The notes under the pieces are model-generated. The model did not search any database. It worked only from the letters and a program-made list of their open reading frames with translations, and was not told the origin of the DNA. DNA of 64,000 bases, taken from Caldilineales bacterium (GTDB lineage: Bacteria > Chloroflexota > Anaerolineae > J102). The DNA lies in the NCBI GenBank assembly GCA_019695115.1, contig JAIBAP010000013.1, positions 36,179 through 100,178 on the forward strand, written 5' to 3'. The translations under genes were made by a program, and so were the position numbers. This document shows, piece after piece, positions 21,693-24,875 of the stretch (its first letter is position 1; every line of letters starts with the position of its first letter).

Positions 21693-24600
21693 ATGCGCCT
21701 CACCGCCGACCTTCACCTTCATTCCCACTACTCCCGCGCCACCAGCCAGGACCTCACCCTCTTCCACCTGGCCAAATGGGCGCAGATCAAAGGTGTGCAC
21801 ATCGTCGGCACCGGCGACATCGCCCACCCCGGCTGGCTGCAAGAACTGAGAGAACATCTGGAGCCGGCGGAAGCGGGGCTGTTCCGGCTCAAATCTGATC
21901 TGGCGCCGGCGGTCGAGGCCGAAGTCCCGCCCGCCTGCCGCGGCCCCGTCCGCTTCCTGCTGGCGGGCGAGATCAGCAACATCTACAAGCGCGGCGGCAA
22001 GACGCGCAAAATCCACCACATCGTCTTCGCCCCCGACCTTGACGCCGTCGCCCGGCTGCAAGCCCGGCTAGAGCGCATCGGCAACATCCGCTCCGATGGC
22101 CGCCCCATCCTCGGCCTGCCCTCGCACGACCTCCTGGAAACCCTGCTGGAGGTGGACGAGCGCTGCTGCCTCATCCCCGCCCACATCTGGACCCCCTGGT
22201 TCGCCCTCCTCGGCTCGATGTCAGGCTACGACTCGGTCGAAGAATGCTTCGGCGACCTCAGCCCGCACATCTTCGCCCTCGAAACCGGCCTCTCCTCGGA
22301 CCCGCCCATGAACTGGCGCGTCTCCGGGCTGGATCGCTACACCCTCGTCTCCAACTCCGACGCCCACTCGCCCCCCAAACTGGCCCGCGAAGCCACCCTT
22401 TTCGATTGCGAGCTCTCCTACGACGCCATCTTCGACGCCCTGCGCAGCGGCGACCCCGCCCGTTTTCGCGGCACCCTCGAATTCTTCCCCGAAGAGGGCA
22501 AATACCACCACGACGGCCATCGCAAATGCGGCGTCAACTGGAAACCGGCCCAGACGCTGGCCCACGGCGGCCTCTGCTCGGTCTGCGGCAAACCGGTGAC
22601 GGTGGGGGTCTATCACCGTCTGGAAACCCTGGCCGACCAGCCCGAAGGCCGGGTCAAGCCCAACGCCCGCCCCTACTTCAGCCTCATCCCCCTGCCCGAA
22701 ATCCTGGGCGAGCTGCACGGCGTGGGCGCCGGCAGCAAACTGGTCGGCCAGGCCTACGACCGCCTCCTCACCAGCCTGGGGCCTGAGCTGGCCATCCTCC
22801 TCGAGCTGCCGCTGGAAGCCATCGCCACAGCCGGGGGCGAACGCCTGGCGGCCGGGATCGGCCGCATGCGCCGGAGCGAAGTTACCGCCATCGCCGGCTA
22901 CGACGGCGAATACGGCCTCATCAAACTCTTCGACGCCCCCGCCGCTTCGCCACAACTCGACCTCTTCGCCCCGCCCCCACCCACCCCCATCCTCCACGAA
23001 CCCCCTCCCACCCTGGTCCCCCTCCCGCCCTCTCAGCCCCAATCTCCAATCTCCAATCACCAATCTCCTCTCAACCCCGCCCAACGCGCCGCCGTCCTCT
23101 GCACCGACCGGCCCCTGATCATCGTCGCCGGCCCTGGCGCCGGCAAGACCCGCACCCTCACCGCCCGCATCGCCCACCTGGTGCAAGACCTGGGCGCCGC
23201 GCCCGCAAGCATCCTGGCCATCACCTTCACCAACAAGGCCGCCGAAGAAATGGCCGGGCGGTTGCGTCACCTCTTGGGCGAGGCCACGGCCGCGCGGGTC
23301 ACGATCAAGACCTTTCATGCCTTCGGCGCCATGCTCTTGCACGAGTTCGGCGACCGGCTGGGCCTGGCGTCGGGCTTCGCCATCCTGGGCGATGACGACC
23401 GCCTGGCCCTGCTCAAGCGCGTGGCCCCTGAACTCGGCCAGCAGCAACTCGCCCAGGCGCTGGCCTTCATCGCCGCTGCCAAGAACCACCTCCAAACCCC
23501 CGACCTGGCTTCCGTCGCCGAATTCACTGAGCTCTATCGGGGCTACGAAGCCGCCCTGCGCCAGAACCAGGCCGTGGACTTCGACGACCTCATTCTGTTG
23601 CCCGTGCGCCTGCTCGAAGAACAGGCCGAGGTGCGGGAGGCGCTCCACAGCCGCTTGCGCTGGTTGTCGGTGGACGAATACCAGGACATCAACCTGGCCC
23701 AATACCGGCTGCTCCGGCTCCTGACCGCAGGCGGGGCCAATCTCTGCGTCATCGGCGACCCCGACCAGGCCATCTACGGCTTCCGCGGGGCCGACTACCG
23801 CTATTTCCTCCGCTTCGAGCAGGACTACCCCGACGCCCGGCGGCTGCACCTCGACCAGAATTACCGCTCCACCCAGATCATCCTCGACGCCGCCACCCAG
23901 GTCATCAGCCGCAACCCCAACCGGCAGGCGCTGCGCATCTTTTCCGACTTCGTCGAGCAGGTCAAGCTGGACGTCCACCCCGCCCCTACCGACAAAGCCG
24001 AGGCCGAGTTCATCGTCCACCAGATCGAGCAGATGGTGGGCGGCACCAGCTATTTCTCGCTCGATTCGGCGCGCGCCAGCGGCCATGAGGCCGCCCCGCG
24101 CAGCTTCGCCGACTTCGCCGTGCTCTATCGCCTCTCGGCCCAGAGCCGGGCGCTGGCCGAGGCCCTCGAACGTTCCGGCATCCCCTACCAGACGGTCGGG
24201 CAGACGCCGCTGTACGAGTTCAAAATCGTGCGCGAGGCCCTGGCCTTTCTCTGGCTGCTGCACAATCCCCGCTCGCAGCTACACCTCGACCTGGCGGCAG
24301 GGGCCGGCCGCTCGCCCGCCTTCCAGTCGGACCTGGCGGCCAGCCAGCCGGAGATGACTGCCGCCCAACTGGTCGAGCGCGTTGCTGCCTTCCTGGTGGC
24401 CAGCCGCAGCCTGAGCCAGGCCGACGCCACTCGTCTCGACCAACTGGCGCGGCGAGCCGCGCCCTTCGGCCACGACCTGGCGGCCTTCCTGGAAGCGACC
24501 ATCCTGCACAGCGAGACCGACTTCTACGACCCCCGCGCCGACCGCGTGACCCTGATGACTTTGCACGCCTCGAAGGGCCTGGAATTCCCCGTCGTCTTCA

Positions 24601-24875
24601 TCGTTGGCTGCGAGGAGGGCCTGTTGCCCTATGTGCGGGCCGGTGAACCGCCGGACATCGAGGAGGAACGGCGGCTGTTCTACGTGGGCATGACCCGCGC
24701 CCAGAAAAAACTGGTGCTCAGCCACGCCCACACCCGCTTCCTCTTCGGCCAGCGGCTGCAGAATCCGCCCTCGCCTTTCCTCCGCGACATCGCCAGCGCC
24801 CTCAAAGACATCCGGGCGATGGAACGCCGGCCGGAGAAGAAAGAACCGGCGGGGGTGCAGCTCGGCCTCTTCTAG
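21693..24875 (+). CDS. fusion protein: N-terminal EndoQ-like PHP phosphoesterase with Zn-ribbon (COG1379-type) plus C-terminal UvrD/PcrA/Rep-type SF1 helicase
   Basis: N-terminal part: ADLHLHSHYSRATS, HIVGTGDIAHPGW, HHDGHRKC...CSVCGKPVTVGVYHR. A Pro-rich linker follows. Helicase motifs: IVAGPGAGKTRTL, VDEYQDIN, GDPDQAIYGFRGA, TLHASKGLEFPVVFIVG, RRLFYVGMTRAQKKL. The start ATG 21693 lies 22 nt after the HNH stop. Confidence 0.8.
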   Translation: MRLTADLHLHSHYSRATSQDLTLFHLAKWAQIKGVHIVGTGDIAHPGWLQELREHLEPAEAGLFRLKSDLAPAVEAEVPPACRGPVRFLLAGEISNIYKRGGKTRKIHHIVFAPDLDAVARLQARLERIGNIRSDGRPILGLPSHDLLETLLEVDERCCLIPAHIWTPWFALLGSMSGYDSVEECFGDLSPHIFALETGLSSDPPMNWRVSGLDRYTLVSNSDAHSPPKLAREATLFDCELSYDAIFDALRSGDPARFRGTLEFFPEEGKYHHDGHRKCGVNWKPAQTLAHGGLCSVCGKPVTVGVYHRLETLADQPEGRVKPNARPYFSLIPLPEILGELHGVGAGSKLVGQAYDRLLTSLGPELAILLELPLEAIATAGGERLAAGIGRMRRSEVTAIAGYDGEYGLIKLFDAPAASPQLDLFAPPPPTPILHEPPPTLVPLPPSQPQSPISNHQSPLNPAQRAAVLCTDRPLIIVAGPGAGKTRTLTARIAHLVQDLGAAPASILAITFTNKAAEEMAGRLRHLLGEATAARVTIKTFHAFGAMLLHEFGDRLGLASGFAILGDDDRLALLKRVAPELGQQQLAQALAFIAAAKNHLQTPDLASVAEFTELYRGYEAALRQNQAVDFDDLILLPVRLLEEQAEVREALHSRLRWLSVDEYQDINLAQYRLLRLLTAGGANLCVIGDPDQAIYGFRGADYRYFLRFEQDYPDARRLHLDQNYRSTQIILDAATQVISRNPNRQALRIFSDFVEQVKLDVHPAPTDKAEAEFIVHQIEQMVGGTSYFSLDSARASGHEAAPRSFADFAVLYRLSAQSRALAEALERSGIPYQTVGQTPLYEFKIVREALAFLWLLHNPRSQLHLDLAAGAGRSPAFQSDLAASQPEMTAAQLVERVAAFLVASRSLSQADATRLDQLARRAAPFGHDLAAFLEATILHSETDFYDPRADRVTLMTLHASKGLEFPVVFIVGCEEGLLPYVRAGEPPDIEEERRLFYVGMTRAQKKLVLSHAHTRFLFGQRLQNPPSPFLRDIASALKDIRAMERRPEKKEPAGVQLGLF

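Follow-up and report, generated by a model that had tools for sequence, protein, structure and literature searches.

A widespread bacterial EndoQ-helicase fusion with candidate beta-clamp motifs, a putative enzyme of deaminated-base repair

We found a gene in which a complete EndoQ module (residues 1-415) and a complete SF1A helicase of the UvrD/PcrA type (residues 458-1045), separated by a disordered Pro-rich linker, are fused in a single polypeptide, both modules with matches far beyond chance. The gene is located in a stretch of 64,000 nucleotides from a Caldilineales bacterium (the window) and is a single ORF on the forward strand, running from an ATG at 21693 to a stop codon ending at 24875 and coding for 1060 amino acids. 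On balance, we favor the view that its product is a sliding-clamp-tethered enzyme combining EndoQ with a PcrA/UvrD-like 3'-5' SF1A helicase, which would incise and then unwind DNA in a glycosylase-independent repair of deaminated or abasic bases. The features of the gene are as follows.

21693..24875, + strand: whole gene of the EndoQ-helicase fusion (ORF and translation, 1060 aa plus stop)
21693..22487, + strand: EndoQ PHP catalytic domain, aa 1-265 (alignment to PfuEndoQ, homologue conservation)
22488..22691, + strand: EndoQ Zn-binding domain, aa 266-333 (alignment to Pfu C249/C252/C268/C271)
22692..22937, + strand: EndoQ C-terminal helical domain, aa 334-415 (Pfam PF27218 MJ0043_C, precomputed match)
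22938..23063, + strand: disordered Pro-rich linker, aa 416-457 (pLDDT <50, lowest conservation, variable length)
22953..22967, + strand: internal candidate beta-clamp motif QLDLF, aa 421-425 (conservation, split-gene ORF ends)
23064..24827, + strand: SF1A UvrD/PcrA/Rep-type helicase module, aa 458-1045 (Pfam, NCBIfam, PcrA 1pjr, Foldseek)
24222..24515, + strand: helical 2B-like subdomain, approximately aa 844-941 (six helices, pLDDT 80-94)
24858..24872, + strand: C-terminal candidate beta-clamp motif QLGLF, aa 1056-1060 (conservation, enrichment over shuffles)

The ATG at 21693 was preferred over an in-frame TTG at 21672 because the N-termini of the homologues (consensus MxLVADLH) begin at the position equivalent to this ATG. 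An antisense ORF of 680 aa (22221-24263) was discarded as an artefact of high GC content, the GC3 of the forward frame being 0.87. The identical 1060-aa protein is called on three independent metagenome contigs, and there are at least 120 clusters of full-length homologues, with identities of 58-87%. Misassembly or a chimaera was rejected on the basis of these three contigs and of the same architecture in more than 200 clusters, and a pseudogene or inactive domain because neither module shows any variation in its catalytic residues across the family. The strings that the initial annotation had quoted as hallmarks are all present: DLHLHSHYSRA (aa 6-16), GTGDIAHP (39-46), HHDGHRKC (272-279), and CSVCGK (295-300).

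The assignment of the N-terminal part to EndoQ, made initially from the letters of the sequence, is borne out by profile, chain, and fold comparisons. The TIGR00375 profile matches over the full model (positions 2-374) with 144.3 bits and an E value of 6.4e-42, the structures 5zb8 and 7k30 match at approximately 1e-52, and the predicted fold of the module superposes on 5zb8 with a TM of 0.82 (rmsd of 3.6 A over 416 columns, Foldseek). Residues 3-413 align end to end with residues 3-383 of the PfuEndoQ chain (E value of 5.8e-53, ~32% identity), and the three-domain layout (PHP, Zn-binding, and helical) is that of the EndoQ enzymes of P. furiosus (PF1551) and T. kodakarensis (TK0887), represented by 5zb8 and 7k30, and of B. 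pumilus. The PHP metal ligands, whose loss had been named as grounds for abandoning the assignment, are conserved in the query and in 120 close and 89 diverse homologues; they are H8, H10, E93, H108, H164, D223, and H225, aligned to H8/H10/E76/H84/H139/D193/H195 of PfuEndoQ, and the only exceptions are rows gapped at H8/H10 (three in the 120-set and one in the 89-set). The roles of the catalytic and pocket residues have been established by mutagenesis (PMC5961232), and we took them from that work and from a review (PMC8307549). The lesion pocket and the wedge are also retained, with T167, W169, E197, G199, L200, S201, and N221 (plus H164 in the pocket) corresponding to T142, the wedge W144, E167, G169, L170, S171, N191, and H139 of the archaeal enzyme. 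These residues are invariant or nearly so in both homologue sets (among the 89 diverse homologues, W169 is replaced by His in 9 and N221 varies in 11), while the Pfu pocket residue L168 is Thr198 in the query. From this conservation, we infer that the fusion would cut immediately 5' of dU, dI, dX, and AP sites, leaving a 3'-OH and a 5'-phosphate.

The Zn-ribbon proposed at first needs a qualification. The four ligand positions are present (H276, C279, C295, and C298), but the first is occupied by His, giving H-C-C-C where the archaeal enzyme has C4, and within HHDGH only H276 aligns with a Pfu ligand. H276 is found in all 120 close homologues and in 87 of the 89 diverse ones, and the three cysteines are invariant; a Zn site is still plausible here. 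The helical domain (aa 334-415) aligns to Pfu residues 304-383 and is helical in the predicted model. A long branch separates the module from the archaeal enzyme, and its score is below the curated TIGR00375 cut-off (326.6 bits), as that of the helicase is below the PcrA equivalog cut-off; given these scores, the substrate range could differ from that of archaeal EndoQ.

The C-terminal part had been described as a complete SF1 helicase, and indeed every SF1 motif is present, with core residues 95-100% conserved in 120 homologues: the Q motif (N461-Q464), Walker A (G480-T486), Ia (508-517), II (DEYQD, 661-665), III (688-700), IV (Y724-R725), V (956-965), and VI (995-1003). It matches the Pfam families UvrD-helicase (E value of 1.4e-74) and UvrD_C (1.1e-49) and the PcrA chain 1pjr (2.5e-108), and Foldseek aligns it to the PcrA, UvrD, UvrD1, and Rep structures 1pjr, 9dci, 4c2u, 2is*, and 1uaa with E values of 1e-34 to 1e-29. 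Motifs and overall fold are the same as in PcrA, UvrD, and Rep (1pjr, 3pjr, 2is1-6, 4c2t, 9dci, and 1uaa), at 30-36% identity, and the model contains the four subdomains 1A, 1B, 2A, and 2B, parts of 2A being of low confidence. By homology, the module probably translocates and unwinds in an ATP-dependent 3'-5' manner. Compared with these helicases, the query carries an N-terminal nuclease predicted to be lesion specific, and its 2B-like region is shorter and more variable: conservation is low at aa 861-920, only ~63 query residues match PcrA residues ~411-530, and the region is nearly absent from the split helicases of Planctomycetales.

Since the solved and curated proteins closest to it are the housekeeping helicases PcrA, UvrD, and Rep, the protein might be the general PcrA/UvrD of the cell, dedicated to fork clearance and to nucleotide excision and mismatch repair, with EndoQ as an accessory and the fusion as a form of co-regulation; a clamp motif would suit such a replisome-associated helicase. 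We consider this quite improbable, given that the scores are far under the equivalog cut-offs (490 versus 911 bits for PcrA, 433 versus 951 for Rep, and 370 versus 1144 for UvrD) and that the PcrA/UvrD C-terminal extension is missing. The query aligns with PcrA only as far as residue 650 (of 724), and in place of residues ~650-724, the RNA-polymerase/partner-binding domain, there is a disordered tail of ~15 aa ending in QLxLF. The helicase also co-evolves with EndoQ and stays adjacent to it when split, and the phyla to which cultured carriers such as Sorangium and Desulfonema belong normally have a canonical UvrD. A UvrD-like SF1A motor covalently joined to a nuclease is found as well in AddA, RecB, and AdnB, which gave weaker matches. 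These have a C-terminal PD-(D/E)XK nuclease and act on DNA ends within multi-subunit complexes, whereas the nuclease of the query is N-terminal, of the PHP fold, predicted to make lesion-specific nicks, and without a conserved partner gene.

The two modules are connected, as originally noted, by a Pro-rich segment (16 Pro in the 44 residues of aa 416-459) that is predicted to be disordered. It is the least conserved part of the protein, with a median length of 83 aa across the family. In the full-length AlphaFold model (pTM 0.45), the position of one module relative to the other is not confidently predicted; given also the disordered linker, their docking is not readable and no particular hand-off geometry is supported. 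A long flexible linker also fits intramolecular action of another kind, in which the helicase would be an ATP-driven, lesion-scanning translocase or a release factor stripping EndoQ from the nick for turnover, the strand being displaced by the polymerase. PfuEndoQ remains on its nicked product (PMC5961232), and the helicase is far less constrained than the nuclease (mean identity of 34% versus 55%), both in keeping with this role. Nevertheless, it seems unlikely to us: the SF1A motifs related to unwinding are ~100% conserved, the 1B- and 2B-type regions are kept, and the helicases of split genes retain a clamp motif of their own, which suggests an independently recruited helicase and not a mere release factor.

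These motifs, absent from the initial annotation, are QLDLF behind the EndoQ module and QLGLF at the C-terminus, both candidates for binding the beta clamp and both within predicted disordered segments. The internal one lies directly behind the helical domain, where the EndoQ module once had its C-terminus, at a fixed offset of 13-15 aa past GYDGEYG. In the Chloroflexota set, Q421 is invariant and L424/F425 are at least 90% conserved; in a relaxed form, the motif occurs in 54.5% of 233 fused proteins (2.3% in shuffles) and is absent from ~45%. The C-terminal one is in the disordered tail (aa 1046-1060, pLDDT <50), with Q1056/L1059 invariant. A strict QLxLF within the last 12 aa is found in 161/233 fused proteins (69%) against 0.18% in shuffles, and the relaxed form in 87% against 1.2%. 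In split pairs, the EndoQ ORF and the helicase ORF both end in Q[LM]xLF, as do standalone relatives. The paired motifs would parallel the PIP box of archaeal EndoQ, a short C-terminal clamp motif on a lesion-specific endonuclease that binds PCNA and thereby stimulates cleavage, and beta-clamp motifs have been noted in standalone bacterial EndoQ homologues (PMC4858679). Mismatch-specific NucS/EndoMS likewise has a C-terminal motif for the beta clamp or PCNA, according to work cited in PMC8438529. The query differs from the archaeal enzyme in that its motifs are of the bacterial QLxLF type and not a PIP box, and from both systems in having two candidate motifs, one per module, and a built-in helicase.

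Mapping of the distribution had been suggested initially. Relatives of the EndoQ module were found in no fewer than 594 species genomes, which belong to more than 12 bacterial phyla. Of the 68 top loci that have a complete ORF, 55 carry the two modules fused, likewise over more than 12 phyla, and so do nearly all of the best-scoring 150 among 1083 clusters (defined at 50% identity and E <= 1e-30). In Planctomycetales and Omnitrophota, EndoQ and the helicase are adjacent separate genes, a split form overlooked in the first reading, and a few close relatives (L028, L042, L049, and L058) have no adjacent helicase. The distances of the two modules correlate (r = 0.52, Mantel 0/999). The fusion is not rare: it is present in hundreds of bacterial species and appears to be the common form of EndoQ in bacteria. 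As the initial annotation supposed, we found no characterized example or published description of an EndoQ-helicase fusion in the searchable literature, and apparently it has never been studied before.

The locus is an ordinary core chromosome setting, with SecA, the nuo operon, and a Mur ligase. Across the compared loci, the neighbors are variable, non-defence, and mostly metabolic or envelope genes, and a tblastn search of the ten window neighbors against 84 loci found no conserved partner gene; only an HNH gene recurs, in two loci and at differing distance and orientation. In the window, this HNH gene is directly upstream of the fusion gene. Toxin-antitoxin genes surround the homologue at one other locus (L004). 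No tRNAs, Rfam families, or sigma-70-like promoter were found, and terminator-like sites are at background level only.

A role in defence would have the EndoQ pocket read uracil or non-canonical bases in phage DNA and the helicase process or degrade it, similarly to other systems that pair a nuclease with a UvrD-like helicase. The helicase matches the PADLOC models of Gabija GajB and of DRT-associated helicases (E values of 1e-86 to 1e-90), the HNH and toxin-antitoxin genes just mentioned could be read in the same direction, and, according to a review (PMC8307549), Bacillus EndoQ may act in antiviral defence and is insensitive to Ugi, a phage protein. However, the PADLOC matches, limited to UvrD-like and HNH models, reflect the generic UvrD fold that the query shares with GajB and DRT helicases (293-302 bits versus 490 for PcrA, to which it is closer), and the EndoQ module has no match among the best 25 of 54. 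Neither a GajA OLD-family nuclease nor a reverse transcriptase was found next to the gene in the window or in five other loci. The core-chromosome context, the unconserved neighborhoods, an EndoQ-module tree that largely tracks taxonomy, and the conserved clamp motifs, which point to host replication and repair, make defence a poor candidate.

The incise-then-unwind reading that we prefer would proceed in four steps on deaminated bases (dU, dI, and dX), abasic sites, and probably some oxidized bases. UvrD unwinds from the nicks of repair endonucleases such as MutH, with MutL, and UvrC. Here, one or both QLxLF motifs would dock the protein onto the beta clamp, as the PIP-PCNA contact does in archaeal EndoQ, and the EndoQ module would flip the lesion into its pocket and hydrolyze the phosphodiester linkage directly 5' to the lesion, leaving the 3'-OH and the 5'-phosphate on the damaged nucleotide. 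The flexibly tethered helicase would then load at the nick on the intact strand and run 3' to 5', peeling off the lesion-bearing 5' end and also freeing the tightly bound EndoQ; PfuEndoQ stays on its nicked product (PMC5961232), and for the archaeal pathway a helicase has been proposed to act after the nick together with FEN1, polymerase, and ligase (PMC8438529). It is equally conceivable that a 3'-5' helicase engages the nicked strand itself, in which case the undamaged stretch upstream would be unwound. Finally, a 5' flap nuclease or a 5'-3' exonuclease (the Pol I 5' nuclease or a RecJ-type enzyme) might remove the displaced strand, a clamp-bound polymerase would extend the 3'-OH across the gap, leaving ligase to seal the strand.

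In this proposal, the downstream helicase has been wired to the nuclease by evolution, through fusion or operon adjacency and with a beta-clamp motif per module; therefore, the downstream pathway is directly testable with one recombinant protein, and among the cultured carriers Sorangium spp. and Desulfonema magnum are suited to genetics. As a natural lesion-directed nick-and-unwind module, the protein could also help to detect or enrich deaminated DNA. More tentatively, the fusion may represent a widespread and previously unrecognized bacterial repair pathway in which one clamp-docked protein recognizes the lesion, nicks 5' of it, and unwinds. If so, it would be a one-protein, glycosylase-free counterpart of MutH plus UvrD or UvrC plus UvrD, and the fused form, instead of the standalone Bacillus-type enzyme, would be the main bacterial EndoQ, overturning the view of this enzyme as essentially archaeal.

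The EndoQ-helicase fusion is a real feature. ORF calling and translation gave an uninterrupted frame of 1060 codons from an ATG (window 21693-24875, + strand), and, although a TTG lies in frame 21 nt 5' of it, we accepted this ATG, the start chosen in the initial annotation, because homologues begin there, with the consensus MxLVADLH.... The motifs by which an EndoQ-like domain had been proposed are all in the protein (DLHLHSHYSRA at residues 6-16, GTGDIAHP at 39-46, HHDGHRKC at 272-279 and CSVCGK at 295-300), as is the Pro-rich linker (residues 416-459, 16 Pro out of 44).

The proposed EndoQ identity of the N-terminal module (residues 1-415) was confirmed by database matches. 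Using phmmer against PDB sequences, the query matched the P. furiosus enzyme (PfuEndoQ) at E 5.8e-53 (5zb8) and E 2.8e-52 (7k30), with chain residues 3-383 aligned to query residues 3-413, taking in all three EndoQ domains. The match to the NCBIfam model TIGR00375 is full-length (model 2-374, E 6.4e-42), the 144 bits of the query being below the curated cut-off of 326.6 bits, and the protein also carries an annotation for PF27218 (MJ0043_C), a newer Pfam family. An AlphaFold2 model (alignment depth of 43 sequences) superposed on 5zb8 with a TM of 0.82 and an rmsd of 3.6 A over 416 columns. Residue roles were taken from the crystal-structure paper (PMC5961232) and, for the EndoQ-DNA complex, from a review (PMC8307549).

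Functional residues of PfuEndoQ and their counterparts in the query
Metal ligands: PfuEndoQ H8, H10, E76, H84, H139, D193, H195; query H8, H10, E93, H108, H164, D223, H225
Pocket and wedge: PfuEndoQ T142, W144, E167, G169, L170, S171, N191; query T167, W169, E197, G199, L200, S201, N221
Pocket: PfuEndoQ L168; query T198
Zn ribbon: PfuEndoQ C249, C252, C268, C271; query H276, C279, C295, C298

All of the PHP metal ligands, whose conservation the EndoQ assignment had presumed, are kept. The mapped metal, pocket, wedge and Zn positions vary little or not at all in 120 close homologues, and the same is true of 89 representatives drawn from clusters at no more than 50% identity. The first predicted Zn-ligand position is His in 120/120 close and 87/89 diverse homologues and, judging from these alignments, this His is fixed throughout the clade. 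In 9 of the 89 diverse fused representatives, His stands in place of the wedge Trp (query W169, Pfu W144), and query N221 (Pfu N191) is variable in 11 of 89, variation that hints at subfamilies with changed lesion handling.

The helicase module (SF1A, residues 458-1045) is complete, with all UvrD motifs, as had been claimed: Pfam found UvrD-helicase (E 1.4e-74) and UvrD_C (E 1.1e-49), and motifs Q, I, Ia, II (DEYQD), III, IV, V and VI are conserved at approximately 100%. Its top curated match is PcrA (490 bits), although it falls short of the equivalog cut-offs for PcrA, Rep and UvrD alike. In the PDB, the PcrA structure 1pjr (E 2.5e-108) ranked ahead of D. radiodurans UvrD, M. tuberculosis UvrD1, Rep and E. 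coli UvrD, and Foldseek was concordant with this result. The 2B region (approximately residues 844-941) is modelled with confidence as helical, and it is more variable and shorter than that of PcrA. PcrA residues 650-724, in its C-terminal region, have no counterpart in the query, which ends in a disordered tail of 15 residues.

A search with the full protein recovered at least 120 full-length homologue clusters (58-87% identity), mainly from Caldilineae, Anaerolineae and other Chloroflexota MAGs; their database names go no further than "UvrD-helicase domain-containing protein," "PcrA" or "TIGR00375 family." When phmmer was run exhaustively with the EndoQ module alone against 1.84 billion representatives, 1083 clusters reached E <= 1e-30; almost every one of the 150 best-scoring has a length of 1000-1370 aa and, because of this length, was read as fused. 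Scanning one genome per GTDB species, we found an EndoQ-module relative in at least 594 genomes, the best 80 of which belong to Chloroflexota, Gemmatimonadota, KSB1, Omnitrophota, Planctomycetota, Desulfobacterota, Myxococcota, Alpha- and Gammaproteobacteria, Verrucomicrobiota, Fibrobacterota, Elusimicrobiota, Spirochaetota and Bacteroidota; cultured members of these 80 include two strains of Sorangium as well as Desulfonema magnum 4be13. In 55 of the 68 loci having a complete ORF, the two modules share one reading frame (1014-1288 aa) with Walker A, nearly always together with a DEYQD-type motif.

Planctomycetales (loci L024, L025 and L038 of the scan) and Omnitrophota (L021, L044 and L061) have instead an EndoQ gene of 423-433 aa followed directly by a separate orthologous helicase gene, some pairs with overlapping stop and start; in the Planctomycetales helicases, 2B is nearly gone. 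Neighbour-joining on EndoQ-module sequences places these split forms inside the fused ones, a pattern that suggests secondary fission. Pairwise distances of the two modules are correlated across the 89 diverse fused proteins (r = 0.52, with 0 of 999 Mantel permutations as high). Both this correlation and the adjacency of the genes when split count as evidence that the modules work together. Mean identity in the same 89 proteins is 55% for the nuclease versus 34% for the helicase, making the nuclease, by this measure, the more constrained module. A general housekeeping UvrD carrying an accessory domain is a reading less well supported than repair by incision and unwinding.

Several loci (L028 and L058, both Desulfobacterales, L042, L049 and L084) have an EndoQ gene and, as far as the available sequence extends downstream, no helicase. 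Of these, L028 and L058 are sisters of the fused genes L043 and L026, which suggests that their helicase was recently lost or truncated. A C-terminal Q[LM]xLF is retained in L042 and L035 and absent from L028, L049, L058 and L084. Two MAG chromosomes, both complete and both assigned to "Spirochaetia bacterium" (L008 and L045), also carry fusion genes; their EndoQ modules are 71-72% identical to that of the window and fall within the Caldilineaceae group of the tree, so this taxon assignment may be mistaken.

The window is a stretch of ordinary core chromosome, also encoding a Mur ligase, ABC transporters and sugar-phosphate enzymes, with no tRNA or Rfam matches.

17020-20106, secA
20828-21241, + strand, 137-aa ORF of unassigned function, preceding the HNH gene
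21246-21671, + strand, 141-aa HNH endonuclease (Pfam HNH, E 1.6e-11; weak PtuB-like PADLOC matches)
37316-46190, - strand, complex I (nuo) operon segment with three Proton_antipo_M subunits and NuoH

Only 21 nt separate the end of the HNH gene from the start of the fusion gene. The HNH gene was not counted as part of the system, since just two further loci, L004 (Caldilineaceae) and L071 (Desulfonema magnum), have a homologue near the fusion gene, approximately 3 kb from it and in differing positions and orientations. Beyond EndoQ and the helicase themselves, no conserved neighbour was found among the homologue loci compared. Defence against non-canonical phage DNA is a less well supported role than incise-then-unwind repair. 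Two long antisense frames, 680 aa inside the fusion gene (22221-24263, - strand) and 1030 aa inside secA (17023-20115, - strand), are stop-poor as expected at 65% genome GC and are non-genes; the GC3 of 0.87 in the + frame of the fusion gene marks the former as the usual high-GC artefact. GC is approximately 0.58 around 42-46 kb, in the nuo region, versus approximately 0.65 in the rest of the window. An unusual electron-transfer fusion of 961 aa (5124-8009, - strand) joins cytochrome c7-like multihaem repeats to a cytochrome b561/Ni-hydrogenase CYTB domain at its C-terminal end. An 836-aa sugar nucleotidyltransferase (NTP_transferase plus hexapeptide repeats; 53887-56397, - strand) is fused to a complete phosphoglucomutase/phosphomannomutase, and a second, standalone PGM/PMM (56621-58057) is divergently oriented to it.

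Bacterial beta-clamp-binding motifs have the consensus QL[SD]LF. Two candidate motifs in the query fit it, neither of them in the initial annotation: QLGLF at the C-terminal end (...VQLGLF) and QLDLF at residues 421-425, immediately C-terminal to the EndoQ module, both in segments with pLDDT below 50.

Candidate clamp motifs in 233 fused proteins and in composition-matched shuffles
C-terminal motif (last 12 aa), strict QLxLF: 69% of proteins, 0.18% of shuffles
C-terminal motif (last 12 aa), relaxed: 87% of proteins, 1.2% of shuffles
Internal motif (linker), relaxed: 54.5% of proteins, 2.3% of shuffles

The strict motif occurs only twice across all folded parts combined, and the internal one has a fixed offset of 13-15 residues beyond the GYDGEYG strand. 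In split operons, Q[LM]xLF ends both the EndoQ and the helicase ORFs; therefore, the internal motif looks like the EndoQ module's own C-terminus, kept within the fusion. In archaeal EndoQ, a C-terminal PIP box mediates PCNA binding (KD 55 nM), and the PCNA ring stimulates the enzyme; C-terminal beta-clamp consensus sequences have been noted in standalone bacterial EndoQ homologues (PMC4858679).

The query is homologous to both EndoQ and PcrA/UvrD, under the equivalog thresholds of both. Its architecture departs from theirs in the fusion itself, the predicted H-C-C-C Zn site, the reduced 2B, the missing PcrA C-terminal domain and the two candidate clamp motifs. It is also unlike AddA, RecB and AdnB, which have a C-terminal PD-(D/E)XK nuclease, act at DNA ends and form complexes. 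Fusion sequences are already public under generic database names, but no paper in the freely accessible literature mentions a helicase fusion of EndoQ; as far as that literature shows, the architecture has been neither described nor characterised before.

UvrD and PcrA translocate 3'-5' and are able to start from nicks. EndoQ incises DNA directly 5' to dU, dI, dX and AP sites, leaving 3'-OH and 5'-P (PMC5961232, PMC4858679), and remains on the nicked product (PMC5961232). A scanning or product-release motor is a possible role for the helicase, less well supported than incise-then-unwind repair. In the latter mechanism, the tethered helicase would load on the intact strand after EndoQ incision and travel along it in the 3'-5' direction, which with respect to the nicked strand is downstream, peeling away the lesion-bearing 5' end; a 5' nuclease would then remove the displaced end, and a clamp-bound polymerase and ligase would complete the repair.
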